A DNA stretch of 64,000 bases from Candidatus Amesbacteria bacterium (lineage in GTDB: Bacteria; Patescibacteriota; Microgenomatia; CAZETR01; Amesbacteraceae). The notes under the pieces were generated by a model. That model did not search any database. It worked only from the letters and a program-made list of their open reading frames with translations, and was not told the origin of the DNA. The stretch lies in contig DAHXMV010000001.1 in NCBI GenBank assembly GCA_027371535.1, positions 253,259 through 317,258 on the forward strand, in the 5' to 3' direction. Shown piece by piece: positions 19,928-47,340 of this stretch (positions within the stretch are counted from its first letter, which is position 1; each line of letters begins with the position of its first letter). The translations under genes were made by a program, and so were the position numbers.

Positions 19928-20893
19928 CTACTTATTGGCAAAAATGACGGCATTGGGGAGGTTGCGGCCGGGACCATACAGGTACCTACCATTGTATATA
20001 AGGGCGGTGGAACCGCCGGTGTCCAGGTTAAGAGCCCCCCGGGCCCCGAGGGCCTTAAATACGTAAGCAAACTGCTGCATGTTCACAGCCTGGGCGACGA
20101 CCACGATTACATGCTGGGGATCAATGACACCGATTCCCACTTTGGTATTGACACCTTTTTGCTTATCCGACAAGCCGGACTGATTATCGTCAATTTGGAC
20201 GTTACCACCGTCCAATAACCCGGGGTAATTGACAATCCCCGCAATTAATCCCCCGCTAAAACCGGCTGAACTATTCAAATAGTGAGCTCCCGAGCCGTCA
20301 ACATAAAAAATGGCCCGGCGTTCGTTCCAGAATAATTTGTCCTGATTAATCCATTTACCCAGACGGGTGTTGTAAACCGGAAAGTCATATGAATTGGTCT
20401 TTCCGGAACAGTCGGGATAGGTATCGGGGCAGAAATAGCTGCCATTGACCCCGGCGTAACCGCCGTTTTTAGATACATAATTTGCCAGAGGATAGACGTT
20501 GCAGGCGTTGCCGCAATTATCATCATTACCGGTATCCGTAATCACCCTGGTGCCGGCCAAATTAAAAGCCATGACCGTAACTGAAAAAGTCCCTTTGGGT
20601 GTATTCACTGTAGATCTGGTAAGACCGGTGCCCGGCGGTCCGGATATGGGAATCGGGGTCGGCTTCGGGAAAGGAGTAGGAGTCGGCCTTGGGGTAGGAC
20701 TGGGAATCGGGGTAGGAATTAAAGTGGGCAGGGGCTCGAAAGTCGGAAAAACCCGGGAGGCAGCCGATGGCGGTACAGAAACAGCAGCAGACTCATGGTT
20801 TAAGGTTAAGACTACTAACCCGGAAACGGTGATTAACAAACCAAAAGTTAAGGGTACTATTAAAACCGATCCCCGGTGAGGTACAACGGGCAT
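19928..20893 (-). CDS. Phosphodiester glycosidase-family (NAGPA/DUF2233-like) surface protein
   Basis: N-terminal TM segment, a Pro/Thr-rich linker, and a C-terminal ALNLDTGGST resembling the (L)NLDGGGS motif of phosphodiester glycosidases. Confidence 0.5.
   Translation of the reverse strand: MPVVPHRGSVLIVPLTFGLLITVSGLVVLTLNHESAAVSVPPSAASRVFPTFEPLPTLIPTPIPSPTPRPTPTPFPKPTPIPISGPPGTGLTRSTVNTPKGTFSVTVMAFNLAGTRVITDTGNDDNCGNACNVYPLANYVSKNGGYAGVNGSYFCPDTYPDCSGKTNSYDFPVYNTRLGKWINQDKLFWNERRAIFYVDGSGAHYLNSSAGFSGGLIAGIVNYPGLLDGGNVQIDDNQSGLSDKQKGVNTKVGIGVIDPQHVIVVVAQAVNMQQFAYVFKALGARGALNLDTGGSTALIYNGRYLYGPGRNLPNAVIFANK
20608..20758 (-). repeat. Low-complexity Pro/Thr-rich linker coding repeat (PTPIPSPTPRPTPTPFPKPTPIP)
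   Basis: Direct reading of the ORF translation. Coordinates are approximate. Confidence 0.5.
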
Positions 20894-23838: not shown

Positions 23839-24537
23839 ATGGAAGATAATTTGAACCCGTTTTATGAAATCAGCGTAAACGGCAATGAACCTGCCTGGTG
23901 TATCGACGGCAGGAAAGAGTCAGGCCGGACAAAAAAAGGCGCCCAAATGCCCGGAGGATCAATATTCCCGATTCTGCTGGCGATTATTGAACAAAACGAA
24001 GATTTCTCCGCGGAGAACATAAACAGATATGCCCAAAAATTATCAAAGAAATTCAAACTGGGGGTTCACAGGGGAGAACACGGCGGTTGCGGATTTGCCA
24101 ATAATCTGATCAGAATCCTGCTAAAAATAACGGAAAAAGAAGAAGAAATAAAAGAGAGATTGAAAGATTTTGAAACAAATTCAGTTTATGAATCGCTGAA
24201 AGGTTATTCTTTATTAAAGGTAAAGGTGACCGGAGAAGAATTGATCAGCGATTTGGAAAAACAAAACGCGGTTGTTATGAATCTGGTCGGTGAACATGAA
24301 GAAAGGGCGGCCTTTGTAAACCTGAAAGACGGGACTACCTTGGACGTTCTGAAAGCCAATGAATCCGGGTCTCCGGCATTCAACCTGGATCTGTGGATGA
24401 TTGTAAAACAAGCCAAAGAATTGGGAGTAAATGAAGATTTTGCCCGAATCGCGTCTTTAATTATATATTTAGCCACGGAAATGGTACTGGTAGAAGATAA
24501 AGGAAAACCGGCATTAGATATAATTGTTCATAAATAA
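23839..24537 (+). CDS. Hypothetical protein in the atpI position of the ATP synthase operon
   Basis: Ends 3 nt before atpB. Soluble, 232 aa. Contains CIDGR and, about 60 residues later, HGGCG, a Cys-Asp-Arg...His-x-x-Cys spacing reminiscent of the beta-carbonic-anhydrase zinc site. It lacks the intervening RNAGN motif, so this may be coincidental. Confidence 0.3.
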   Translation: MEDNLNPFYEISVNGNEPAWCIDGRKESGRTKKGAQMPGGSIFPILLAIIEQNEDFSAENINRYAQKLSKKFKLGVHRGEHGGCGFANNLIRILLKITEKEEEIKERLKDFETNSVYESLKGYSLLKVKVTGEELISDLEKQNAVVMNLVGEHEERAAFVNLKDGTTLDVLKANESGSPAFNLDLWMIVKQAKELGVNEDFARIASLIIYLATEMVLVEDKGKPALDIIVHK

Positions 24538-32681: not shown

Positions 32682-33824
32682 ATGAATAATAGAAAATCCC
32701 CAAGGGGCTGGTTTCGGAAGCTCAAAATAGTTTTAGCAGCCGGAGTATTAGTCATAACCGGATTAGTGTTATTTATTAAATTTGATACGGCAGGAGCGGC
32801 GCAGTTTACAGATAACGTCCTCAGGCCACTTTTGGGTACCGATGCAGTTATAACCCTGGAAAGGTGGTATTACAACACGGCCGATAAACTAAAGCAGCTA
32901 ACCTATAATTCAAAATCGGATACCGGCTTAAATTTTCTGGACCAGTCCTTTGCAAAGGACGGACCAATCAGCAGCCAGGTCAGTCTGGAACTGACTCGTT
33001 TGACAGTTAACCCGAAATTTAAACCGGAACAAAACGAAGGAGTATGGAATGACCGGCCTCTGAAAATTTTTCCCGGACAGGAAGTGATGGCTTTTACTTA
33101 CATCCGTCCCGATCCGGACCGGCCTTACGCTTATGTAACCATAATCCAGGCGGATATGAAAGTACTGCATTTATCTGCTGTGGCCGGAACCAAACAGCCG
33201 GGCGGCCCGGTGGGCATGTCCGGTCCGGGCGTAGTACCGGAACAGATTAAAAACAGCGGCCGGCTGGTTGCGGCTTTTGACGGCGGATTTCAATACCGGG
33301 ACGGTGAATACGGAATGATCGTGGGTAACACGACCTACCTGCCGCTCAAACCGGATATCGGGACCCTGATCGGATACACAAACGGAGATCTGAAGATTAT
33401 CAAATATAAGGGCCAGAACCTTGGCCCGGGGGTGGAGTTTGTGAGACAAAATTGCCCAATTCTGATTGAAGACGGATTGTCGGCCGTGACTGATGAAAAA
33501 AATAAGAAGCTATGGGGTAGAACACCAAGCTTTGATATTAAAACCTGGCGGTCCGGAATCGGACTGAATAAGAACGGGAATGTCCTTTACGCCGTCGGTA
33601 ACAACCTGACACCCCAAACCTTGGCGGATGCATTGCTGTCGGCCGGAGCGGTAGAGGCGATTCAACTGGATATCAACCCTTACTGGGTGAGATTTAATAT
33701 TTTTGATGATACCGGCAACGGCACCTACCACACTTCGACTTTGATAAATAAAATCCAGGACGGTTCAAAAGAATATCTGAACGGCTATACCAAAGATTTT
33801 TTTTACTTATATAAAAACCCCTAA
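32682..33824 (+). CDS. Phosphodiester glycosidase-family (NAGPA/DUF2233-like) protein, paralog 2
   Basis: N-terminal TM segment. C-terminal region ...LLSAGAVEAIQLDINPYW resembles the family's C-terminal conserved region, although the canonical LDGGGS motif is altered. Confidence 0.45.
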   Translation: MNNRKSPRGWFRKLKIVLAAGVLVITGLVLFIKFDTAGAAQFTDNVLRPLLGTDAVITLERWYYNTADKLKQLTYNSKSDTGLNFLDQSFAKDGPISSQVSLELTRLTVNPKFKPEQNEGVWNDRPLKIFPGQEVMAFTYIRPDPDRPYAYVTIIQADMKVLHLSAVAGTKQPGGPVGMSGPGVVPEQIKNSGRLVAAFDGGFQYRDGEYGMIVGNTTYLPLKPDIGTLIGYTNGDLKIIKYKGQNLGPGVEFVRQNCPILIEDGLSAVTDEKNKKLWGRTPSFDIKTWRSGIGLNKNGNVLYAVGNNLTPQTLADALLSAGAVEAIQLDINPYWVRFNIFDDTGNGTYHTSTLINKIQDGSKEYLNGYTKDFFYLYKNP

Positions 33825-34067: not shown

Positions 34068-35117
34068 ATGCAGACTGTCAGGCCCGGCAACTACGACCCG
34101 GTGATAGATATTTTACGGGCAATTTCAATTTTGGCCGTGATTTGTATTCATACCACCACCAGAACGATGGAAACGGTAAATCTGTATCTGCCAAAGGTAC
34201 CTGTGGCTATTTTTTTAAACCAGATTTCCCGGTTTGCCGTACCGATGTTTTTTCTGATTTCCGGATTTGTACTGGAATTATCACACAAAGACGGTTTGGG
34301 ATACTTTGGCTATCTTAAAAAAAGACTGGGAAAAATTCTGATACCATATGTATTTTGGAGCGCTATTTACTACTTTTTCATCTACACCCGGCACGGGGTC
34401 AGTTTCTGGCAGGCTTTGGCCGGGGGGAACTCTTCATACCAATTGTATTTTATTCCATCGCTGTTTCTCTTATATTTGGTATTTCCGCTTTTACATGCCG
34501 TATACCGGTGGATCAGCCGGTGGTGGGTTATCATCCCTATCCTGGCAATCCAAATCTGGCTTTTATATCTGGATTATTATCCCCGGGAGATTAATTTGTG
34601 GGATCCGTTAAGAATAGTGGTGTTAAATTCCGGCTGCTTTCTGGCCGGGATGATAGCCTCGCAAAATACGGATAAAATTAAGGAATTAACGGTAAAATTT
34701 AAATTTATCCTGGCGCCGGCAGCCGGACTGCTGGGAATTTTTATTTTCCGGGAAGGCGGATCCAGATACCTGACATCCTGGAATTATATTGATTTTTATT
34801 CCCAGTGGAGGCCAAGTATTTTTATCTATACGTTAGGGTTATTCGGTTTAGGATATACCTGGTTAAGCCGGCCGGGGCAAATATTTCTGAAATTGGCCGG
34901 GTGGGCCAATGAGTCTTTTTTGGTTTTTTTTATTCATGTAATAATTTTAGAAAAAGTCTGGGAGTTATTTAATAAAGTGATTTTCGGAAGGCAGACAGAG
35001 TTTTTTATCCGGCAATGGTGGTGGGATCCGGTGTTTTTTTTAGTCGTGGCCGGGGGATCGTTTTTGGCTGCCAGATTGATTCATAAAATTCCCTATATTC
35101 AAAAAGTCACCGGCTGA
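34068..35117 (+). CDS. Acyltransferase family 3 (OatA/OpgC-like) membrane protein
   Basis: N-terminal DILRAISILAVICIHTT, about 10 TM segments, 349 aa. Confidence 0.7.
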   Translation: MQTVRPGNYDPVIDILRAISILAVICIHTTTRTMETVNLYLPKVPVAIFLNQISRFAVPMFFLISGFVLELSHKDGLGYFGYLKKRLGKILIPYVFWSAIYYFFIYTRHGVSFWQALAGGNSSYQLYFIPSLFLLYLVFPLLHAVYRWISRWWVIIPILAIQIWLLYLDYYPREINLWDPLRIVVLNSGCFLAGMIASQNTDKIKELTVKFKFILAPAAGLLGIFIFREGGSRYLTSWNYIDFYSQWRPSIFIYTLGLFGLGYTWLSRPGQIFLKLAGWANESFLVFFIHVIILEKVWELFNKVIFGRQTEFFIRQWWWDPVFFLVVAGGSFLAARLIHKIPYIQKVTG

Positions 35118-35118
35118 G

Positions 35119-35427
35119 ATGGCAAAACAGATTAAAGCCAGACAGCTGACAGGTTTCTGGGAATTAACCCGGGGTCTGATCGGTTATCAAAAACCACTGC
35201 CGATGTATTTTAAAACCAGATGGGGGATACACACTTTCGGGGTCAGGTTTCCACTGGATATCCTGATTCTGGATAAAAATCAGCGGGTGGTGAGAATGGA
35301 AAAAGGCTTAAATCCCTGCAGGATTTATGTCTGGCCTCCGGTTAATGACGGGGTACTGGAGTTACCGGCCGGGACGATTGAAAAAAAACGAATTAAAACC
35401 GGAGATATAATCAATATCTCATGGTAA
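35119..35427 (+). CDS. DUF192-family protein
   Basis: WGIHTFGVRFPLDILILD...VWPPVNDGVLELPAG fits the DUF192/COG1430 pattern. Confidence 0.55.
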   Translation: MAKQIKARQLTGFWELTRGLIGYQKPLPMYFKTRWGIHTFGVRFPLDILILDKNQRVVRMEKGLNPCRIYVWPPVNDGVLELPAGTIEKKRIKTGDIINISW

Positions 35428-36386
35428 AAAATGACCGGCTGGTATGGGCTGATGTGACCAGAGGGCTGGCGATTTTTTTGGTACTTTTCGTACACACTGC
35501 GGTTTTTCCCGCCAAGGCGGGGATTGCCAATCCGATAACCCTGACTTTATTATCCATATCCAGATTGGGGGTGCCCCTGTTTGTGCTGTTATCGGGCAGC
35601 CTGCTCCTGGTTAAATCCGAAAGTTACGGGGTGTTTGTTAAAAAAAGGATCAGCCGGCTGGTAAAACCCTGGTTTTTCTGGTCGGTCATAATTACCCTGG
35701 ACCAAATGATTATTTTTCACCGACCCGTGAATAATTTAGCAGGTTTATTGGCTTTATTCAGATCAATTTTCGTACCGGTGTGGTTTGTGCCGATGCTTTT
35801 GGGTTTATATCTCTTAACCCCGGCTTTGAGGATTTTAGTAAAAAATGCCGGACAAATTGACGTTTTTTTAATCTGTCTTTGGTGGTTTGGCGGATTATCA
35901 ATCTTACCGTTTTTGAGAAATACGGCAGCTTTTCCCATGGTTTCCGACAACGGTATAGTCCGTCAGGTGGTTCAGTTCAGCGGTTATTTTCTGGGCGGGT
36001 GGTGGCTATCCAAAGCCAGCCGGAAAGTACATAAATTTTTTTGGGCCGCGGGAATTGCAGGCTGGATTTTAACATTATATAAAAGCAATGCAGATCTGAA
36101 TTTTTTAAACTACCTGGCTCCCGGGGTGGTACTGATGGCCGGGGGAGGTTTTAGCGGATTACTGACTCTCGGCCCATATCTTTCGGGCAAAATAAATTCC
36201 GGGATTAAAAATGTTTTGGCCTTGATTAGCCAAACCACTCTGGGAATTTACTTTGTCCACCCGCTGATTCTGCAAACCCGCCTGATACCGGAAGGGTTAT
36301 TTGGTACCGGACTGTTATTCTTAATTTCATTCGGGGTAATTTATGGATTACAAAAAATTGCCCCGATTAGATCCTGGGTGGCTTAA
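35421..36386 (+). CDS. Acyltransferase family 3 membrane protein (paralog)
   Basis: WADVTRGLAIFLVLFVHTA N-terminal motif and multiple TM segments. Confidence 0.7.
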   Translation: MVKNDRLVWADVTRGLAIFLVLFVHTAVFPAKAGIANPITLTLLSISRLGVPLFVLLSGSLLLVKSESYGVFVKKRISRLVKPWFFWSVIITLDQMIIFHRPVNNLAGLLALFRSIFVPVWFVPMLLGLYLLTPALRILVKNAGQIDVFLICLWWFGGLSILPFLRNTAAFPMVSDNGIVRQVVQFSGYFLGGWWLSKASRKVHKFFWAAGIAGWILTLYKSNADLNFLNYLAPGVVLMAGGGFSGLLTLGPYLSGKINSGIKNVLALISQTTLGIYFVHPLILQTRLIPEGLFGTGLLFLISFGVIYGLQKIAPIRSWVA

Positions 36387-37675: not shown

Positions 37676-40063
37676 GTGAAAAAGGGGTTAATCATCGGCC
37701 TGATATTATTTTCGGGTTGGCTTCTGTGGTGGACTATTCCCGATATAAAAAGCGGCGGGACGATAAAAATCCGAGACAGAAACGGGGAATTGCTATACGA
37801 AACAGCCGGAAACGTGGGGCGAAAGCAACCCGTAAGCTATAACCAATTTCCAAAATATCTGATAGACGGGGCTGTGGCTGCCGAGGATAAGACCTATTTT
37901 ACCAATCCGGGAATAGACCCTGTGGCCATGCTTAGGGCAGCCTTTCAAAATCTGAAATACGGGCAAATTGTCAGCGGCGGAAGTACCATCACCCAACAAT
38001 TAGCAAGAATTGCGGTTATCGCCGACAAATCGATCTACTCGCACAACTGGCTTCGAAAAATCAGAGAAAGCCTGATAGCCATAAGATTAACTCTGGTATA
38101 CAGCAAACAGGACATTCTGACCCAATATTTAAACAATGTTTACTTCGGACACCTGGCTTACGGCGCCCAGGCGGCTGCCCGGACATATTTTCATAAGGAC
38201 GTCAGCCAGCTGTCATTGGCTCAGAGCGCATATCTGGTGAGCCTGATTTCGACTCCGGAAAATGATCCTTCAATAATCCGGAGACGACAAACGGAAATAT
38301 TAAACCAGTTAGAGTCGCAAAAATTCATCAGCCGGGAACAGGCAACCAATGCCAAAACCGAGGAAATGACTTTATATCCTCCCGAGGCCTCAGCCTCTGC
38401 CCCGCACTTTGTGGACTACGTCAGACAGCAACTGGCAGATACGGGCATAAATTATTCCGGCGGCATAAATGTGATCACGACCCTGGACGGCCCCGACTTT
38501 ATGCTGGCCCAGGATATTGCCCGGGAATGGGTGAAAAAACTGTCCGGGGAGCACGATTTATCCAATGCTTCCCTGGTAATGCTGGATAACCGGACCGGGG
38601 CCATCAGAGTAATGCTCGGGGGGATTGATTACGCCGATGCAACCCACGCCGGACAGGTGAATCTGACCACAGCCAGCAGACAACCGGGGTCTGCCCTAAA
38701 GCCCATTACCTACGCGGCCGCCTTTGACATGGGATATACACCGGCAACATTGATATATGACGTACAAACGGTGTACCAAACTCATACCGGCGAGGGATTC
38801 ACCCCGAATAATTACGACGGCCGGTATCACGGACTGGTCCTGGTTCGGGAAGCCCTGGCGTCATCTTTAAACCAGCCGGCGGTAGAAATGTTAAACCGGA
38901 TCGGCATCGGAAACTTTTTACAAACTGCCGCCGACCTGGGGATCAGGACATTAAAACCCGACCCCAAATATGACCTGGCACTGACATTGGGCGGGGGGGA
39001 AGTCACGCTTTTAGATCTGACCAATGTATATGCCAGCCTGGCCAGGGGAGGAAGTTATTTACCGCCGTATGCCATCGAAAAAATTACCGATGATTCCGGC
39101 CGGGTGATCTATCAACACCACCCCCAACAATCCAAACAGGTTTGGGGAAATAAAAGTCCGCAGATAGCCTACCTGATTACCGATATTCTGGCAGATCCGC
39201 TGGCCCGGATTCCGGGTTTCGGGGAAAAAAATCCGCTGGTGCTGTCTTTTCCCGCGGCGGTGAAAACCGGAACCACGACTGACTGGCACGACAACTGGAC
39301 GGTGGGTTATACGCCGCAAACAACGGTGGGGGTATGGGTGGGAAATAATGACAACCATCCGATGATCCGGCTGACGGGAATTACGGGCGCGGCGCCGATC
39401 TGGAACCAGTTTTTTGAGGAAATCCATAAAGGCCAGCCTGCGGTGACGTTTACAAAACCTGCGGGGATCGTCCAAACCACCATTTGTAAAACAGACGGCT
39501 TACTACCCGGTGATTTATGCCGGGAACAAATGGAGGAAAAATTTATAGCCGGAACAGAACCCAAACAGGAGTCGCAAATTTACAAACAGGTTTTAATCGA
39601 TACCAGAAATAACCTCCCGGCAGGGATGGATTGTCCCAAAAAATATTTGGTCACCAAAGTGTTGATTGATTATCCGCCACAGGTCTACGGTTGGGCGGTG
39701 GACAACGGGCTGACGGTCATTCCGAGAGATTCTTCACCGCTTTGCAGCCAGCAAGCCAATACCAATTCCGCATCAACATATGTGAATATAATATTTCCCA
39801 AAAATAATTCCGTGTTTCAGTCAGCTGCAGGGGTGGTAAAAAATCAGCTGATAGATTTATCGGTGAACACTTCCGGGGATGTAACCGGTGTCAACTGGTA
39901 TATTGACGGAAAATTATATAAATACACGAACACTTACCCGTTTTTATCAGCCTGGCCGCCCACACCCGGTGATCATGTGATTATGGCAGAAGGGATAACC
40001 CCGACCGGTGAAACAGCCCGGAGTCAGCAGATTCTCATAAAAGTCACAGAATACGGATTGTAA
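37676..40063 (+). CDS. pbpC: Class A penicillin-binding protein, PbpC-like (transglycosylase plus transpeptidase plus C-terminal domain)
   Basis: GT51 motifs (EDKTYFTNPGID, GGSTITQQLAR). Transpeptidase motifs SxxK (SALKP), SxN (SSLN) and KTGT. The C-terminal beta-rich domain resembles the PbpC C-terminal domain. The pairing with a downstream alpha-2-macroglobulin gene is a known conserved linkage. Confidence 0.8.
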   Translation: MKKGLIIGLILFSGWLLWWTIPDIKSGGTIKIRDRNGELLYETAGNVGRKQPVSYNQFPKYLIDGAVAAEDKTYFTNPGIDPVAMLRAAFQNLKYGQIVSGGSTITQQLARIAVIADKSIYSHNWLRKIRESLIAIRLTLVYSKQDILTQYLNNVYFGHLAYGAQAAARTYFHKDVSQLSLAQSAYLVSLISTPENDPSIIRRRQTEILNQLESQKFISREQATNAKTEEMTLYPPEASASAPHFVDYVRQQLADTGINYSGGINVITTLDGPDFMLAQDIAREWVKKLSGEHDLSNASLVMLDNRTGAIRVMLGGIDYADATHAGQVNLTTASRQPGSALKPITYAAAFDMGYTPATLIYDVQTVYQTHTGEGFTPNNYDGRYHGLVLVREALASSLNQPAVEMLNRIGIGNFLQTAADLGIRTLKPDPKYDLALTLGGGEVTLLDLTNVYASLARGGSYLPPYAIEKITDDSGRVIYQHHPQQSKQVWGNKSPQIAYLITDILADPLARIPGFGEKNPLVLSFPAAVKTGTTTDWHDNWTVGYTPQTTVGVWVGNNDNHPMIRLTGITGAAPIWNQFFEEIHKGQPAVTFTKPAGIVQTTICKTDGLLPGDLCREQMEEKFIAGTEPKQESQIYKQVLIDTRNNLPAGMDCPKKYLVTKVLIDYPPQVYGWAVDNGLTVIPRDSSPLCSQQANTNSASTYVNIIFPKNNSVFQSAAGVVKNQLIDLSVNTSGDVTGVNWYIDGKLYKYTNTYPFLSAWPPTPGDHVIMAEGITPTGETARSQQILIKVTEYGL

Positions 40064-40084
40064 TGAAACCCGGAATCTGATTAA

Positions 40085-43000
40085 ATGATTTCAAGGTGCG
40101 GACATATGTTTTTGGATAAGCTAAAGGGGCTAGCCATAAAAGGTGTGGGGAAAATCATCTCGTGGGGATGGGGTTTTGTTCATTTGCCACTGAAGGAGAA
40201 ATGGGCAAGAATCAAAATCCCGGTGATGGTGGCAATAATTGTCGGGGTGGTAATTCTGATCGGACCTTATTTTGCACAGCCGAAAATCAGCGTCAGCTTT
40301 CCGGGAAACAACTCCCGGGAAAATCCTTTAGACAGCGATGTGGAAATCATTTTTGACCGGGGGATGAATAAAGCGAGCGTGGAAAAAAGTTTTTCAATAA
40401 CTCCAAAGGTGGACGGAGCCCTGACGTGGGAAAGCAACCGGAAACTGGTGTTTACACCAAAAATTCCCCTGCAGAGAGGGGTAAACTACAAAGTGAAATT
40501 TAACGGACTGGCAGTTTCCAGTTTCCTGTCGCCAATGCCCGGCGGGGTATCGGTGACTTTTACGACGGTCGGGAATCCAATCGTATCGGTCTTTTCGCCC
40601 CAGTCCGAGGCAGTAGAGGACCTGGCACCGGTAATGGTAATTTTTGACCGGCCGATGATTCCTTTGACTACGGCCACAAACAGCGCGGAGAAAAAATCTC
40701 CGTTTGAAATATCGCCTCCACTAACCGGAACGGGAAAATGGCTGGGGACTACCGCTTACCAGTTTACCCCGTTGAAACCATTTAAAAAAGCCACCACCTA
40801 CACGGTATCCGTGGTCCCGAATCTGAAATCGGCGGACGGAGGAATAATTAGCCAGTCCTTTTCCTGGCAGTTTTCCAGCCTCAGACCGCATGTTTTATCG
40901 GTAGTTCCGCGGGAGGGGGAGTTTTACGCGTCACCGACAGCCTCTGTCTCTGCAGTTTTCAATCAAAATATCGACGGAGCATCAGCTGCCACCCACTTCA
41001 AGTTGGTAGACACTAACGGGAATCAGATTCCCGGGCGGGTAACAGTTAACGGAAAGCGATTGGGATTTTACCCGGCGGCGGCTCTGGTACGGGAAAAAAT
41101 TTATAAAGCGGTAATTATGGCCGGTCTGGCCGGAAAAGAAGGGCCCAACGGAACGGAATCCGATTATGCCTGGAGCTTTACCATGGCTGCCAAACCGGCA
41201 GTCCTGAGATCAGCGCCGGCTGACGGGGATAAAAATGTAGAAAATCAGGGAATATCGGTATTTTTCAAAACCCCCATGGATGAAGATTCCTTTAAGGACA
41301 ATATCAGTATCAACCCCGTACCGGAAAACAAACCGAATTTCAATTTTTCGGACTGGAACAGTCAAAACGAGCTGAATATTTACAGCTACCTCTTTAGGTC
41401 GACGAAATATACGGTGACCATCGGACCAAAAGTAACCGACCAGTACGGAGTGCCCCTGGGATCGGCATATACATTCAGTTTCACTACCGCCGACTATAAA
41501 CCCAGCGTGTCGTTTGTGCCTTTCGGTACTTATTTTGCCAGTTTCAATCAGCAGATAGTCCCGCGGATTGTGGCCCAGGTAAACAATGCCGGGGAAGTAA
41601 ATTACAATTTATATAAACTCGACCGGAACAGCTTTTTGGATTTGTACAAGCGCTACTATACGGATTTCTGTTCGTGGAACAATGAAGGCTGCCGGAACTG
41701 GCAAAATTATGACGTTTCCAAACTGGAAAAAGTCCGGTCATGGAAAGAAACCATAGATATAAACCCCAGCGTACCGGTAAATGTGGTGACCAAAGTGACG
41801 GCGGCAGACGGGACGAATCTGTTGTCGGGATTTTATTTTCTGACGGCCAACGTGAATACCGGACAGCATGACAATATGGTGATGATTGTGTCGGACGCCA
41901 CCATGGCGGTCAAAAAGAGCAGCCAGCAGATTTTTACCTGGACGGTGGACCAGACCAGCAATGAAGTCATCGGGGGGATGAATATGGAACTGACCGATGC
42001 CTACGGCAACAAGCTGGCATCCGGACAGACAAACGGGGACGGAGTCTGGCAGCAGGACGTCAACATCGGCAATACCTATAACCTGCTGATTTTCGGACAA
42101 AAAGACAGCGATGTGGTAGTGGCTTCTTCAAACTGGGGAAGCGGGATAAACCGGTATGATTTCGGTTTGCCGAGTTATTACAGCTACAACGCCTCCGAGG
42201 ATAACCAAAACAGCAATAACCGGTATAAATTATTTCTAACCACAGACAGGCCGATTTACCGGCCCGGGCAAAAAATTTATTTTAAAGGCCTGATCCGTAA
42301 AGATAACGACGCGGCATATGCCAATATTCCGCCGGGAACACCGGTTTCAGTCAATATTGCCGATGGCCGGGGGAGATCCATTTACAGCAAATCACTACCG
42401 ACAAATTCTTCAGGAACTTTTGCCGACACCTGCGACATCAGTGCCGACGGAGAACTGGGATATTATGATCTGACTGCTACATACGGGGATAACAGCGTAT
42501 CGCAGCAGGTGCAGGTGGAAGAGTTCCGCCGGCCGGATATGCTTTTGACCATTATCCCGGATAAGGGTTATTACCTGGCCGGACAGACCCCGGGGGCGAC
42601 GATTAACACGGCTTATTATTTCGGGGCACCAATGGCCAATGCCCAAGTCAACTGGTCTTTAAATACCCAGGATTATTTCTTTAACTGGAGCCGTGACTGG
42701 CGGTTTGAATTCGGGGATGTGGAAGATATCTGGTACAGATGGTGGGGTTACCACTCCTCTTCGGGAGCTCAGGTTACCAGCGGCACCGGGGTAACGGATG
42801 ACCAGGGTAACCTGAACCTGAAAATTCCTTTCAACATGGGGAAATATACTACCAGCCAACAATTGGAACTGGTGGCCCAGGTGACCGATAAGAGTAATCA
42901 GGCGGTAGGGTCATCACAGACTTTTGTAGTCCACCAAGGAGGAATTTATGCGGGCTTGCACCCGGAAAGCTACGGCAGCAGCGCCGGCTCCGAAACCAAG

Positions 43001-46000
43001 GTGGAGGTGGTGACGGTGGCCCCTGATGAAAATGAAGTCCCGAATACTGCCGTCACCATCCAGTTTTTCAAAAGAACATGGAATACCGTCCGGCAACTGG
43101 ATCCCGAATCGGGGCAATTTACCTATGTCAGCCAGCCGCACGACACCCAGGTAGCCAATGCCAATATCATCACCGACAACTTCGGCCATGCAACCACCTC
43201 TTTTACCCCGGGTGAGGGCGGCACATACCGGGTGCTGGCCAGTGTAACGGATGCCCTGGGGAACACGACAAAAACCAGCAGTTATGTCTGGGTGTCGGGC
43301 AGCGGATACATGACCCAGAGGGAGAATAACGACCGGATTCTGGTAGTACCGGATAAACGGGAATATTTTGTCGGGGATAATGCCTCCGTATTTGTGGATA
43401 CACCGTTTGCCACCGGTTCCGCCAAGACCCTCTTAACAGTCGAAAGATCCAAGGTGATCAGTTATAAAATCGTTGACACCAGCGATGTTTCCAATAATTT
43501 TCAAATGCCGATAAACCCCAACTACTCGCCCAATATCTATATCGGGGCGGTACTGGTCAAGGGCGGCAACCTGGTAAGCGCACCGCCGGAAATGAAAGTC
43601 GGATATGCCGAAGTAAAAGTGACAGACAAAAAACAGCAGCTGACGGTGGATATCCAGACTGATAAACCAAAATATAAGCCGGGGGAGACGATGCATGCTG
43701 TCATCACTGCCAAAGATTTGCTGGGGCATCCGGTAAATGCGGAATTGGCTGTCGGCCTGGTAGATAAATCGGTCTGGGACCTGTCGGAAATCCAGCTGCC
43801 GGATATTTATCAGTACTTTTATGTACCCAGGAATCTGGAAGTGGATACATCGCATTTGTTATCCATTTCCATGGACAGGATCAATACCAACACCAACCTG
43901 GGGGCCAAAGGCGGCAGCGGCGGATGTTTTACCGCGGAAACTCCGATTCTCTTGCCCGGCGGATTAACCAAACCCATCGGGGAGATCAAACCCGGAGACC
44001 GGGTGTTAACCAAAAGCAGCCCCGAATCGGCTGATCTGATCCCCGGAAAAGTGACGGCCGTATTAAAGCACAGTGTGGACAGATACCTGATCATAAACGG
44101 CAGTATTCATGTCACACCAGTACATTTATTATTTGTTAACGGGAATTGGAAAGCGGCTGGGGAAATTCAGACGGGTGACTGGCTGTTAAATACCAAAAAC
44201 GAACCGGTCAGAGTAAATTCTGTAGAGCAAGTATTCGGAAAAGACTTGATAGTTTATAACCTGGAAGTTGATCAGTACCACACTTTTTTTGCAGACGGGA
44301 TTTTTGTGCACAACCAGAAAGGCGGCGGTACGGATACCGCCCGGAATAATTTTCCCGAAACCGCTTATTGGAATCCGTCGATATTGACCGGCGATGACGG
44401 AAAAGCAGATATCACTGTCAAGCTGCCCGACAATCTGACCACGTGGAGATTGTCGGCGATTGCGGATTCCCGGGAGTCGGCATTCGGGTCGGCAACAGAT
44501 GAATTTGTAGTCAACCGAGAGGTGATGATCAGACCGGTGATACCCAGATTTTTGTTATACGGCGATCAGGCCAGTCTGGGAGCAATTATTGTAAATACCA
44601 GCGGTAAATCAGCCGTCTTCTCCACCACTCTGTCAGGCAAAGGTCTGACAGTAAATGCCAATTCCGTCCAGACGGCCACGATAGCCGACGGCGACCAGGC
44701 GAAATTTTTGTGGCCGACAACCACTGCCGGGAGCACCGATTCAGCCACCATTAATATCTCGGTAACGGACCAGAGCGGAACCCTGCATGACAGTTTAGTG
44801 CAAACCCTGCCGGTGAAAAGCTTTTCGACCGGAGAAACCGTGGCCACAGCCGGACAGGCGGCGGACACGGCGGTAGAAAACGTCAAATTACCGTCCGTGG
44901 TGGAATCCCAAAACGGGCGGGTGGATATTACTTTGTCCCCTTCACTGGGGACGGGCAGTATAGAAGCCGCCAATTATATGTATGATTACTCCTATTTCTG
45001 TACCGAGCAGACAACCAGTAAATTACTTACGGCAGTCAGCGCCCTTAAGGTATTAAGACAGGCAAAAACGGAAACTCTGGGATCCGTATCCCAGATGGAA
45101 ATGAACTGGATGGCAAATGATGCCATCCAAAGGCTGAATAATACCCAGCGGCCCGACGGCGGATGGGGCTGGTGGACGGAAGAAAGCTCCAGTGATCCGA
45201 TGATGTCTGCATATGCTTATTTAGGTCTTTGGGAAGCCAAAAACGCAGGCTTCACAGTCGCGGATAAAACCCTGAATCCGGCCAGACAATTTCTGCTGAC
45301 CAGTCTTTCGGGAAATTATCCGACCATAGGCCTGGACGGGAAAACTTTCCTGTTATATGCCTTAAAAGACAGCGGAGCTAATCTGTCGGCGTATGCGACA
45401 AATCTGTATGACCGGAGATTTGAAATGGGGGTAGCTTCGAGAGCATATCTGGCCATGGTCCTGAGGGCCAGTAAATTATCCGACGCAGCCAACAAGCAAT
45501 ATCAGGAGGTGCTGAGCCTGGCGAAAAAAACTTCTACCACCAGCCACTGGGAAGAATCCGGCAGAAATTATTATTACTGGTATTACGGAGCTAATCCGAC
45601 CACGGCAGCAGTCCTGGAGATGATGACGGATTTTGCCCCGAATAATCCCATGACCGGTGAAGCGGTGAGATATCTGATGGCCAACAGGGGGGATTATAAC
45701 TGGGGTTCCACCCAACAGACAGCCCTGATTATGAGAGCCATTACGAAGCAGATGCTGGCCGGCCAGAATGCCAACCTGAAAGAAAATTACAAACTGGAAA
45801 TCAACAACCGGGAGGTGCTTTCCGGACAATTAACCGCCGCTGATTTGCTTAGACTGGTGAAATTCAGCGTGCCGATTTCCAGCCTGGCTATCGGGCAGAA
45901 TAACACATTTAAAATTTCCAAAAGCGGCAGCGGAAATCTTTATTACAACTTTAACATGCATTACTTCCTGCCGTTTTCACAAATCGCGGCGCTTGATCAG

Positions 46001-46444
46001 GGATTGGTCATCATCCGGGAATTCACCGATGACCAGGGTAACAGCCTGCCCTTGGAAACCATCAGGGAAGGAACGCAAGCCTCGGTGAAGCTGACTGTCG
46101 TCGCTCCGGCAACCAGACAATTTGTCATCATCGAGGATATGCTCCCGGCCGGGCTGGAGGCGGTCAATGAAAGCCTGAAAAATGTGGTCAACCTGAATAA
46201 ATCAAATCCCATTTTAGACGAACCGGACAATTGGTGGTATTTTTACCACAGAGAATACCGGGACGACCGGACGACGATGTTTGCCAGATACCTGCCGGCC
46301 GGAATTTACACAGTCACCTACCAGGTGCGGGCGACCACTCCCGGCAAGTACCATTACCCGCCGGCCCAGGCTCATGAGATGTACTTTCCCGATGTGTCAG
46401 GACATTCCGACGGCGGATGGCTGACCGTGATTCCCAACAAGTAA
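40085..46444 (+). CDS. Alpha-2-macroglobulin family protein (2119 aa), N-terminally membrane-anchored, with an inserted Hint domain
   Basis: N-terminal TM/signal anchor (IPVMVAIIVGVVILIGPYF). Repeated MG-like beta domains. A post-bait motif RNNFPETAYWNP...TTWRLSAIA matches the FPETW(L)W...TTWEI region that follows the bait in A2M/C3 proteins. Thioester motif FCTEQT. Located directly downstream of pbpC. Confidence 0.8.
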   Translation: MISRCGHMFLDKLKGLAIKGVGKIISWGWGFVHLPLKEKWARIKIPVMVAIIVGVVILIGPYFAQPKISVSFPGNNSRENPLDSDVEIIFDRGMNKASVEKSFSITPKVDGALTWESNRKLVFTPKIPLQRGVNYKVKFNGLAVSSFLSPMPGGVSVTFTTVGNPIVSVFSPQSEAVEDLAPVMVIFDRPMIPLTTATNSAEKKSPFEISPPLTGTGKWLGTTAYQFTPLKPFKKATTYTVSVVPNLKSADGGIISQSFSWQFSSLRPHVLSVVPREGEFYASPTASVSAVFNQNIDGASAATHFKLVDTNGNQIPGRVTVNGKRLGFYPAAALVREKIYKAVIMAGLAGKEGPNGTESDYAWSFTMAAKPAVLRSAPADGDKNVENQGISVFFKTPMDEDSFKDNISINPVPENKPNFNFSDWNSQNELNIYSYLFRSTKYTVTIGPKVTDQYGVPLGSAYTFSFTTADYKPSVSFVPFGTYFASFNQQIVPRIVAQVNNAGEVNYNLYKLDRNSFLDLYKRYYTDFCSWNNEGCRNWQNYDVSKLEKVRSWKETIDINPSVPVNVVTKVTAADGTNLLSGFYFLTANVNTGQHDNMVMIVSDATMAVKKSSQQIFTWTVDQTSNEVIGGMNMELTDAYGNKLASGQTNGDGVWQQDVNIGNTYNLLIFGQKDSDVVVASSNWGSGINRYDFGLPSYYSYNASEDNQNSNNRYKLFLTTDRPIYRPGQKIYFKGLIRKDNDAAYANIPPGTPVSVNIADGRGRSIYSKSLPTNSSGTFADTCDISADGELGYYDLTATYGDNSVSQQVQVEEFRRPDMLLTIIPDKGYYLAGQTPGATINTAYYFGAPMANAQVNWSLNTQDYFFNWSRDWRFEFGDVEDIWYRWWGYHSSSGAQVTSGTGVTDDQGNLNLKIPFNMGKYTTSQQLELVAQVTDKSNQAVGSSQTFVVHQGGIYAGLHPESYGSSAGSETKVEVVTVAPDENEVPNTAVTIQFFKRTWNTVRQLDPESGQFTYVSQPHDTQVANANIITDNFGHATTSFTPGEGGTYRVLASVTDALGNTTKTSSYVWVSGSGYMTQRENNDRILVVPDKREYFVGDNASVFVDTPFATGSAKTLLTVERSKVISYKIVDTSDVSNNFQMPINPNYSPNIYIGAVLVKGGNLVSAPPEMKVGYAEVKVTDKKQQLTVDIQTDKPKYKPGETMHAVITAKDLLGHPVNAELAVGLVDKSVWDLSEIQLPDIYQYFYVPRNLEVDTSHLLSISMDRINTNTNLGAKGGSGGCFTAETPILLPGGLTKPIGEIKPGDRVLTKSSPESADLIPGKVTAVLKHSVDRYLIINGSIHVTPVHLLFVNGNWKAAGEIQTGDWLLNTKNEPVRVNSVEQVFGKDLIVYNLEVDQYHTFFADGIFVHNQKGGGTDTARNNFPETAYWNPSILTGDDGKADITVKLPDNLTTWRLSAIADSRESAFGSATDEFVVNREVMIRPVIPRFLLYGDQASLGAIIVNTSGKSAVFSTTLSGKGLTVNANSVQTATIADGDQAKFLWPTTTAGSTDSATINISVTDQSGTLHDSLVQTLPVKSFSTGETVATAGQAADTAVENVKLPSVVESQNGRVDITLSPSLGTGSIEAANYMYDYSYFCTEQTTSKLLTAVSALKVLRQAKTETLGSVSQMEMNWMANDAIQRLNNTQRPDGGWGWWTEESSSDPMMSAYAYLGLWEAKNAGFTVADKTLNPARQFLLTSLSGNYPTIGLDGKTFLLYALKDSGANLSAYATNLYDRRFEMGVASRAYLAMVLRASKLSDAANKQYQEVLSLAKKTSTTSHWEESGRNYYYWYYGANPTTAAVLEMMTDFAPNNPMTGEAVRYLMANRGDYNWGSTQQTALIMRAITKQMLAGQNANLKENYKLEINNREVLSGQLTAADLLRLVKFSVPISSLAIGQNNTFKISKSGSGNLYYNFNMHYFLPFSQIAALDQGLVIIREFTDDQGNSLPLETIREGTQASVKLTVVAPATRQFVIIEDMLPAGLEAVNESLKNVVNLNKSNPILDEPDNWWYFYHREYRDDRTTMFARYLPAGIYTVTYQVRATTPGKYHYPPAQAHEMYFPDVSGHSDGGWLTVIPNK
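43925..44314 (+). other. Hint / mini-intein-like (bacterial intein-like) domain of 130 aa embedded in the A2M ORF (residues 1281-1410)
   Basis: Block A CFTAETPILLPGG (Cys1), block B IHVTPVH (TxxH), block F/G VYNLEVDQYHTFFADGIFVHN ending in His-Asn. Too short to contain a homing-endonuclease domain. The +1 residue is Gln (not Cys/Ser/Thr). It is flanked by Gly-rich GGSGG and QKGGG. Confidence 0.7.
44999..45010 (+). other. Putative thioester motif CTEQ of the A2M protein
   Basis: CxEQ in the context YSYFCTEQTT (codon 1639). The canonical A2M thioester motif is CGEQ/CLEQ. Confidence 0.55.
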
Positions 46445-47340
46445 ACTCCTATAATCAGGGCATGCGGATCACCGGTGATGAAGATTTACAAAAACAACTG
46501 ATCCGGACCCAGGAAAACGAGGCCACGGAGGCAATTATTTATTCCAGATTGGCAGGCCGGGTCAGAGACAAAAAGAGTAAACAGATTCTCCTGGCAATTG
46601 CCCGGGACGAGAAAAGACACGCCGGATACTGGAAAAAACGAACCCAAATAGCAGTTTCTGAAAATACTTTGAAGGTGGTCTTTTTTACAGTGACGGCTAA
46701 ATTATTGGGACTGACATTTGCCATAAAACTGATGGAAAAAGGCGAGGAACTGGCCCAGATAAACTACCGCAAAATATCTGAACTGATACCGGATGCCCTC
46801 AATATTGAGAAAGAAGAAAAGTCCCATGAGATGAAACTGGTAAACATGCTGGATGATGAAACCCTCAAATACGCCGTGTCAATAATTCTGGGTATTAACG
46901 ATGCTTTGGTGGAATTAACCGGAGCGTTGGCCGGTTTTACCCTGGCCCTCTCCAATACCAAACTGATCGGCATGACCGGCCTCATATCCGGAGTTGCGGC
47001 TTCACTGTCCATGGGGACCTCGGAGTATTTGTCCACCCAGGCAGAGAAACAGGACCGGGATCCGAAAAAAGCCGCCATTTATACGGGGCTGACTTATCTG
47101 TTGACGGTGATATTATTAATAATCCCCTATTTTACTTTGAATAATGTCTATACGGCACTGATAATTACACTGGTATTGGCAATAGGGGTAATCCTGTTTT
47201 TCACTTTTTACGTCTCAGTTGCCAACGACGTATCATTTTCCAAACGGTTCTGGCAGATGACCGGAATATCCCTGGGAGTATCGGCGCTGACGTTTATGCT
47301 GGGATATCTGGTAAAAAAAATCCTGGGGGTGAATATTTAA
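46417..47340 (+). CDS. Er-VIT1 protein: N-terminal ferritin-like (erythrin) domain fused to a VIT1/CCC1-family iron transporter
   Basis: N-terminal ENEATEAIIYSRLA...DEKRHAGYW (rubrerythrin-like ExxH). C-terminal ILGINDALVELTGALAGF VIT1 signature with TM helices. The start is probably an internal Met (MRITGDE...). Confidence 0.6.
   Translation: MADRDSQQVNSYNQGMRITGDEDLQKQLIRTQENEATEAIIYSRLAGRVRDKKSKQILLAIARDEKRHAGYWKKRTQIAVSENTLKVVFFTVTAKLLGLTFAIKLMEKGEELAQINYRKISELIPDALNIEKEEKSHEMKLVNMLDDETLKYAVSIILGINDALVELTGALAGFTLALSNTKLIGMTGLISGVAASLSMGTSEYLSTQAEKQDRDPKKAAIYTGLTYLLTVILLIIPYFTLNNVYTALIITLVLAIGVILFFTFYVSVANDVSFSKRFWQMTGISLGVSALTFMLGYLVKKILGVNI

Follow-up and report, generated by a model that had tools for sequence, protein, structure and literature searches.

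In Gram-negative bacteria, pbpC and the gene for an alpha-2-macroglobulin (A2M) are linked, and it has been hypothesized that their products form a defense-and-repair pair (PMC5764988). The type I (thioester) A2Ms of this kind, including YfhM (ECAM) of Escherichia coli and Sa-A2M of Salmonella (structures 4u48, 4ziq and 5a42), combine a chain of macroglobulin (MG) domains, a bait domain, a CxEQ thioester in the context YxYxCxEQ, an MG10 domain and a membrane tether, and have a PBP1C-type penicillin-binding protein (PBP) as neighbor. At the position equivalent to the bait, C3, C4 and C5 carry an anaphylatoxin (ANA) domain and a furin site, and cutting there controls the activation of the thioester. 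A separate group of proteins that bears on the present locus is the type A bacterial intein-like (BIL) domains, reportedly the subject of work by Amitai in 2003 and Dassa in 2004. They are defined by a C-terminal His-Asn and the absence of a +1 nucleophile; they form no branched intermediate and yield mostly N- and C-terminal cleavage products, with splicing possible by aminolysis (PMC4031507, PMC7664689). Here we describe a locus in which the two meet. In a 64,000-nucleotide stretch of a Candidatus Amesbacteria contig (DAHXMV010000001.1, positions 253,259 to 317,258; hereafter the window), a PBP1C-like gene is followed by the gene for a membrane-anchored type I A2M, and the bait loop of this A2M contains a Hint domain with the character of a type A BIL. 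The pbpC-a2m pair itself is already known; what differs here is the unexpected lineage, the Candidate Phyla Radiation (CPR), together with the anchor, the gene order and the BIL domain in the trigger loop.

The Hint domain covers 130 aa (aa 1281-1410; 43925..44314, + strand) and is placed exactly inside a short poly-Gly bait loop, in the arrangement GGSGG/C...VHN/QKGGG. The N-side of the loop, NLGAKGGSGG, lies at 43895..43924 and the C-side, QKGGGTDTARNNFPETAYWNP, at 44315..44377 (both + strand). Cys1281 opens the motif CFTAETP, TPVH forms block B and the last residues are VHN (Asn1410), so that the +1 residue is Gln1411, a non-nucleophile. The initial annotation mentioned this insert in an aside; it is indeed present, but it was underrated: what sets the locus apart is this domain, placed precisely within the bait loop. 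Pfam PT-HINT matched it with 40.9 bits (aa 1296-1410), NCBIfam intein_Cterm with 28.6 bits, and Pfam Hint with 24 bits, under the 29.7-bit cutoff. The best sequence match in the PDB was 2lwy, a Clostridium thermocellum BIL titled 'bacterial intein-like domain' (E 1.5e-8). An AlphaFold2 model of the Hint with 25-aa flanks reached a pLDDT above 90 within the domain and below 50 in both flanks, which are disordered, consistent with a folded domain carried by a flexible loop. When this model was compared with known structures by Foldseek, the top five matches were all BIL domains, first Tetrahymena BUBL BIL2 (6y75/6tmm, E 3e-12) and then 2lwy, with inteins and Hedgehog ranking lower.

By its sequence, the domain corresponds to the definition of a type A BIL. 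With the C. thermocellum BIL it shares a length of about 130 aa, the lack of an endonuclease, Cys1, TxxH, His-Asn, the absence of a +1 nucleophile and an exported surface protein as host. However, known BILs reside in variable surface or toxin proteins, whereas the host of this one is a thioester protein, whose trigger loop it occupies and with which it has long been inherited, largely vertically. Two related classes were considered and rejected. Canonical mini-inteins have the HINT fold in common with it, as well as blocks A, B, F and G, but the A2M Hint has Gln at +1 (Q, D or E in ~95% of its relatives), no homing endonuclease and an extracytoplasmic host; with Gln at +1, trans-esterification would be impossible. 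A canonical (class 1) intein is thus excluded, a +1 nucleophile being found in only 1/43 and 4/66 relatives in the two sets described below. A Hedgehog (Hog) Hint is excluded as well: the G/CF junction is present, but the domain ends in HN, the additional C-terminal region for sterol or adduct recognition is absent, the Pfam Hint score is below its cutoff and Hedgehog structures rank lower.

The clade of A2Ms to which the protein belongs (hereafter the long family) comprises 76 members, 43 of which carry the Hint, with the pattern GGSGG/CFT..T...VT..H...VYN..Y.TY.A...VHN/QKGG. Cys1, the Thr and His of block B and the terminal His-Asn are invariant in all 43, and position +1 is occupied by Q (34), D (four), E (three), K (one) or C (one). 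In a wider set of 66 Hints, Gly is at -1 in every case, and at +1 there is Q (24), D (23) or E (13) in 60 and S in four. P0027 is the sole long-family homologue with +1 Cys (VHN/CKGGDGPC), the arrangement of a canonical intein, and has an extra Cys in the loop. This conservation bears on the idea that the Hint is catalytically silent and does no more than enlarge the bait by a bulky part that proteases can reach. Without the domain the bait loop is very short and rich in Gly, so that the added surface might widen the range of proteases able to cut it. However, the positions that stay invariant in more than 100 diverged sequences are the catalytic ones (Cys1, T..H, HN), which a passive spacer would not keep, and we regard this explanation as very improbable.

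The Hint is not confined to the long family. An exhaustive search of 50%-identity cluster representatives with the Hint and its flanks as query, which supersedes a word-index search in which the query was the Hint by itself (1 match from 4 candidates), returned 231 representatives at E<=1e-30. The best 148 of the 231 are mostly A2Ms of a second, shorter CPR family, in which the Hint occupies the same loop. These proteins are ~1.64-1.86 kaa long, with a signal-peptide-like N-terminus, a thioester motif reading CIEQ, CMEQ or CVEQ and a Gly-rich bait; examples are found at L071:3080-8359 in a metagenome-assembled genome (MAG) of WWE3, at L078:3263-8236 in a Moranbacteria MAG, and in P0141 and similar proteins. 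The Hint was found in none of the ~65 Chloroflexota loci examined. A2M-embedded Hints cluster apart from other Hints, and between the two A2M families they are 45% identical, as compared with ~27% for the host proteins (tblastn). Their nearest relatives outside A2Ms, at ~35% identity, are in large surface-type proteins (P0124, P0125, P0131 and P0184, with PKD, Big_9, cadherin-like and Tim44-like domains) that carry 2-12 tandem Hints.

The remaining long-family members show what the loop looks like when empty. In Hint-less homologues the full loop, from the bait-region domain to the conserved FP[DE]TAYWNP, is LGAKGGSGGGGGGGG[NF]DTSRRDF. A KGGGGG bait core also occurs in Chloroflexota relatives (P0079-P0095), some of which instead have an Ala/Pro-rich bait of 40-60 aa. 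On a host tree built with the Hint deleted from the sequences, Hint-plus and Hint-less proteins are interleaved, and parsimony on Hint presence requires 14 or more changes or, if the Hint was gained once, 16 losses. Pairwise identities of Hint and host are nevertheless closely correlated (Spearman 0.93), with means of 58% and 56%, respectively. Since the divergences track each other and the mean identities are equal, the Hint is old, mainly vertically inherited and under purifying selection. The same correlation excludes recurrent lateral transfer as the dominant mode of its spread, although recombinational exchange among close strains does occur. The clearest case is a pair of homologues from sister samples, P0017 with and P0034 without the Hint, which agree at 2000 of 2012 host residues and lie on near-identical contigs (L008:7925-8316 vs L009:7925-7929). 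At the DNA level there are eight mismatches in the 7.9 kb left of the junction and 15 on the right side, 11 of which fall within ~150 bp of the indel. The difference is a recombination tract that swapped C...HN-QK for GG plus the adjacent loop, changing RS to RR. More generally, a dibasic R[RK] precedes [DN]F in the bait loop of 19/33 Hint-less but only 4/43 Hint-plus proteins (p = 8e-6, phylogeny uncorrected), an enrichment that fits a protease site replacing self-cleavage.

The same gain-and-loss pattern is open to another reading, in which the Hint is a tolerated selfish or neutral element resembling a mini-intein. BIL-type splicing once the protein is exported, that is, C-terminal cleavage followed by aminolysis of the N-terminal thioester, would then restore GGSGG-QKGGG and an A2M like its Hint-less relatives. 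The interleaving of Hint-plus and Hint-less proteins on near-identical backgrounds agrees with this, as does loop length: the spliced loop would measure 10 residues and the empty loop measures 11. Type A BILs can also splice without a +1 nucleophile (PMC4031507), and P0027 has the +1 Cys of an intein. However, ~95% of the relatives lack the +1 nucleophile, yet a single change gives efficient splicing in BILs (PMC7664689), so that selection for clean splicing should have restored it. Furthermore, a homing endonuclease is absent, the Hint is conserved as much as its host or more, as the comparison between the two families indicates, and cleavage products predominate for type A BILs. We therefore consider neutral splicing possible but rather unlikely.

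The protein that hosts the Hint is encoded on the + strand at 40085..46444, counted from an ATG that gives 2119 aa. The initial annotation had taken this start, with an upstream PBP gene at 37676..40063 and 21 nt between the two, and both open reading frames (ORFs) were recovered exactly so. The start itself needs correction: Met8 (nt 40106) is likelier, with a Shine-Dalgarno sequence (AAGGTG) 7 nt upstream and a database gene call of 2112 aa in agreement, and the gap between the genes then becomes 42 nt. Macroglobulin profiles of an A2M were found, in the Pfam order four Big_5, bMG3, MG2, bMG5, bMG6, A2M_BRD, Hint, A2M and bMG10. The four Big_5 Ig-like domains extend over 40292..41488 (four stretches, 132 bits); bMG3, MG2, bMG5 and bMG6 over 41888..43783, together with A2M_BRD, the domain of the bait region (aa 1087-1233); the A2M domain covers aa 1426-1510, and the C-terminal bMG10 lies at 46001..46393 (116 bits), all on the + strand. 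By phmmer, the last 700 aa can be aligned with type I A2Ms of known structure from Salmonella (4u48) and E. coli (4ziq and 5a42), and identity to YfhM is 21-25%. A size of ~2000 aa even without the Hint had been remarked upon; it holds, and the excess over the 1653-aa YfhM is explained by the N-terminal Big_5 extension.

A membrane anchor in place of a lipobox had also been proposed, and this agrees with our results. One hydrophobic segment, at aa 39-68 (40199..40288, +; Kyte-Doolittle peak 2.55), follows a basic stretch and lies between KEKWARIK and the conserved PKISxSFPGN; a lipobox was found neither in this A2M nor in any of 77 homologues. We read the segment as a signal anchor, with the protein predicted to lie outside the membrane. 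In contrast to the lipoprotein anchor of the E. coli and Salmonella A2Ms, the tether here is a transmembrane helix, and the protein further differs from them in its four extra N-terminal Big_5 domains, its CPR host, the reversed gene order and the short poly-Gly bait with the Hint.

The thioester motif of the protein is CTEQ (Cys1639-Gln1642; 44999..45010, +). It lies within YSYFCTEQTTSKLL, in the YxYxCxEQ context of the known type I A2Ms; this stretch stands opposite YPYGCLEQTTSGLF in the alignment, with CTEQ on the CLEQ of 4u48. Together with the domain matches, this identifies the predicted protein as a type I (thioester) A2M. The initial annotation was right that the motif is present, and its Cys is mostly conserved, but it had set CTEQ apart as a departure from the usual forms. 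An aberrant motif is ruled out: in the clade the x of CxEQ is T, I, V, A, S, N or G, and as x varies freely and T is the most frequent, CTEQ is ordinary. The expectation of a Gln about 100 residues downstream of the thioester is apparently mistaken; the thioester-modulating residue of C3, C4 and TEPs is a His versus an Asp or Asn, and it is not required for thioester formation.

CxEQ is retained at the aligned site in ~69/76 clade members, the other seven lacking the Cys or the Gln. All seven losses (P0010, P0011, P0015, P0019, P0023, P0030 and P0036) are in Hint-plus proteins, which gives 7/43 vs 0/33 for Hint-less proteins (p = 0.017, phylogeny uncorrected), and in the short family CxEQ is absent from 24/82 Hint-plus members. 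Such losses would make sense if the classical thioester were dispensable in the presence of the Hint, as would be the case if the Hint were a second covalent warhead. The thioester formed at its Gly-Cys junction would then be resolved by an amine, from a Lys of the target or a peptidoglycan stem or bridge, and the anchored N-terminal 1280 residues would be conjugated to it. The model for this is BUBL BIL2, which forms isopeptide bonds with Lys of its substrates, using a ubiquitin-like N-flank (PMC8616854). It would be tempting to extend this activity to the A2M Hint, since the BUBL1 BIL2 structures are its closest structural matches, its N-flank likewise ends in a Gly that is invariant at -1, and its G/CF junction is that of Hedgehog. 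However, BUBL BIL2 is eukaryotic and cytosolic, conjugation by the A2M Hint is argued by analogy alone, and the statistic on CxEQ loss is weak. Moreover, the conserved C-terminal HN points to C-terminal cleavage mattering too. We give this explanation a slim chance.

The gene upstream of the A2M gene, at 37676..40063 (+; GTG start, 795 aa), encodes a PBP1C-like bifunctional class A PBP, as shown by its ORF and profile matches. It comprises a membrane helix (aa 3-22), a transglycosylase (aa 38-212; Transgly, 166 bits), a transpeptidase (aa 299-579; 76 bits) and a BiPBP_C/Big_7 Ig-like C-terminal domain (aa 697-771). The PbpC-like C-terminal domain that had been noticed from the sequence is borne out: BiPBP_C (PF06832) passes its cutoff (30.1 vs 26.8 bits) and NCBIfam PBP_1c (TIGR02073) is the top model for the protein, matching over nearly its full length (model 14-713 of 728). 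The catalytic motifs of both enzyme domains are intact in the translation (EDK..F, GGSTITQQ, RKIRE as RKxxE, SALK, SLN and KTGT). Identity to E. coli PbpC is 29% (E 1e-65), and close homologues in Shapirobacteria and other Microgenomates carry the name PBP 1C (NCBI, JGI). The intergenic spacer, 40064..40105 (+), measures 21 nt to the ATG at 40085 and 42 nt to the likelier ATG at 40106; a scan found no + strand terminator-like site in it. The two genes are co-directional and probably co-transcribed as an operon.

The adjacency of the two genes is strongly conserved. A PBP lies directly upstream and on the same strand in the window (L001) and in L002, L003/L004, L006/L007, L008/L009, L010, L012, L013 and L016, that is, in every long-family CPR locus with an upstream flank, while the remaining neighbors change each time. 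Among loci with both flanks, a class A PBP is found within 4 kb in 6/7 CPR loci and in 17/37 mostly Chloroflexota relatives. In addition, at least 31 further PBP homologues are on contigs equal in size to the contig of an A2M homologue, many of them ~10 kb. The claim that the locus reproduces the conserved pbpC-a2m linkage thus stands insofar as a PBP1C-type PBP adjoins a thioester A2M and the adjacency is kept, but not in gene order: in E. coli K-12, yfhM comes first and pbpC follows immediately, whereas the order in the window is reversed (pbpC followed by a2m). Because the adjacency is kept across CPR and Chloroflexota, the defense-and-repair hypothesis extends to these lineages. The observation made in the initial annotation is confirmed and its interpretation is supported.

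Adjacency could in principle be functionally meaningless, due to chance or because the A2M is an adhesin that serves for host attachment and has nothing to do with repair of the wall. CPR proteins with A2M domains have been discussed as epibiont surface proteins (PMC8080830), and in the three short-family loci viewed (L071, L089 and L090) no adjoining PBP was found. In two of these a 177-aa gene ends just ahead of the A2M gene (L089:5421-5954 and L090:5463-5996), with a Memo-like gene nearby in both; its product is an extracytoplasmic function (ECF) sigma-70 factor in L090 and has no Pfam match in L089. Nevertheless, a PBP that stays in place despite the turnover of all other neighbors in the long-family CPR loci, and that is found in many Chloroflexota relatives and in E. 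coli too, makes a meaningless adjacency scarcely credible.

Where homologues of the two proteins are named, they come from Shapiro-, Roizman-, Gottesman-, Woese- and Levybacteria and WWE3, which are Microgenomates-group CPR, with Peri- and Moranbacteria more distant; the nearest relatives outside CPR are Chloroflexota, at ~30% identity. With these homologues and the ordinary content of a small chromosome in the window, the assignment to CPR is well supported on sequence grounds, in agreement with the earlier suggestion of a probable CPR genome. Three loci from MAGs titled 'uncultured Gammaproteobacteria bacterium' (L010, L015 and L016) have a CPR-type Hint-plus A2M with 40-49% identity to that of the window. 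The PBP is again found upstream in L010 and L016, whereas L015 is too short for that flank. Their label is probably a taxonomic mislabel.

We suggest that the two genes encode a cell-envelope defense and repair pair, in which the A2M is a trap that opens its own bait loop by autoprocessing, and consider this reading as a whole reasonably probable. Each protein would be held by one N-terminal membrane helix, which would place both on the outer face of the cytoplasmic membrane; the placement follows from the two helices and from the biology of the CPR envelope, in which an outer membrane is not expected. By analogy with ECAM and the Salmonella A2M, envelope-attacking proteases would be caught covalently through the buried CTEQ thioester after opening of the bait, and the PBP would repair the wall. 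After export, the Hint would undergo an N-to-S acyl shift at Gly1280-Cys1281 and then cyclization of Asn1410, by which the bait loop would be cut, or less often re-ligated, with no external protease needed. The Hint-plus allele would accordingly be a self-processing trap, and the Hint-less allele one that offers poly-Gly and usually a dibasic site to a protease. We prefer self-opening because type A BILs mostly cleave, because the residues for the N-S shift and Asn cyclization are all kept, and because the splicing-promoting +1 residue is nearly always absent and the dibasic site is found in Hint-less alleles. Taken by itself, the step in which the Hint opens the bait loop is predicted with about even confidence.

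Several points weigh against this reading. Judged from sequence, the Hint may cleave, may splice or may remain unprocessed. If the bait cut itself without regulation, the thioester should be fired and wasted, and the self-cutting model therefore needs a trigger or a stable two-chain state such as that of C3. Such states exist, as C3 and C4 processed by furin persist in a stable two-chain form. The Hint was lost or replaced at least 14 times and near-identical alleles with and without it coexist, from which it follows that the Hint is dispensable, and the dibasic correlation could reflect hitch-hiking on a Hint-less bait cassette that was spread by recombination. As for the partner and the operon, the PBP score of 479.4 bits is just below the PBP_1c equivalog cutoff of 494.2, and scans for promoters (13 vs 14.3 expected from shuffles) and terminators (16 vs 13.0) are at chance level and thus uninformative.

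The comparison with C3, C4 and C5 invites further speculation, with the difference that the domain inserted here is a Hint with predicted autoprocessing activity, not an ANA domain removed by a convertase. The CPR A2M with its Hint might be a protease-independent, self-arming covalent capture device, with autoprocessing in the bait loop taking the role that falls in C3 to the removal of the anaphylatoxin domain by a convertase. In this scenario, the second thioester at the Gly-Cys junction may be passable to target amines; an episymbiont could thereby fix the protein covalently to the surfaces of host cells or walls, or to attacking enzymes, on an environmental cue; and the Hint and poly-Gly/dibasic cassettes would be exchanged between strains through recombination as alternative trigger modes. 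We hold this scenario to be improbable.

The pbpC-a2m hypothesis was framed for the Gram-negative periplasm, and the pair is also tightly conserved in CPR and their Chloroflexota relatives. These are small-genome lineages in which a classical periplasm is not expected. Conservation there suggests that the coupling of the two proteins is old and tied to the wall rather than to an outer membrane. The Hint in the bait loop, in turn, offers a natural experiment on the triggering of thioester proteins, since the exact point of the switch is occupied by a domain with predicted autoprocessing activity. Two A2M families and hundreds of sequence clusters have retained this domain despite deep divergence, and yet a poly-Gly/dibasic loop has repeatedly taken its place. 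If the Hint does fire the trap, this would be the first protease-independent route of activation in the A2M/C3 superfamily and a new physiological role for BIL domains. In the open-access literature we found no link of macroglobulins or the bait region with inteins, BIL or Hint domains or autoproteolysis, although absence there does not mean that it is unreported; a conserved Hint/BIL domain in the trigger loop of A2Ms seems not to have been described previously. Membrane proteins with A2M domains are mentioned in passing for CPR (PMC8080830, PMC9793634), and the PBP linkage was not found in that literature.

The surroundings of the pair suggest a cell-envelope neighborhood. Upstream are two Acyl_transf_3 membrane acyltransferases around a DUF192 gene, and the window also holds two NAGPA-like phosphodiester glycosidases; this envelope-type set of acyltransferase and NAGPA-like genes is located at 34068-36386 (+), 19928-20893 (-) and 32682-33824 (+). 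The rest of the window is that of an ordinary small bacterial chromosome, with an F-type ATP synthase, a type IV pilus ATPase and platform protein, Lon and glycogen enzymes. Searches of the window for tRNAs and Rfam families gave no match. A ferritin-like/VIT1 (CCC1-type) membrane protein is encoded at 46462-47340 (+), 17 nt past the A2M stop; as a neighbor it is not conserved among the other loci. Finally, a 232-aa ORF at 23839-24537 (+), just upstream of the ATP synthase A chain, has a weak match to CDCA, the cadmium carbonic anhydrase repeat (39.9 bits, cutoff 29.2), in an odd location for such a domain.

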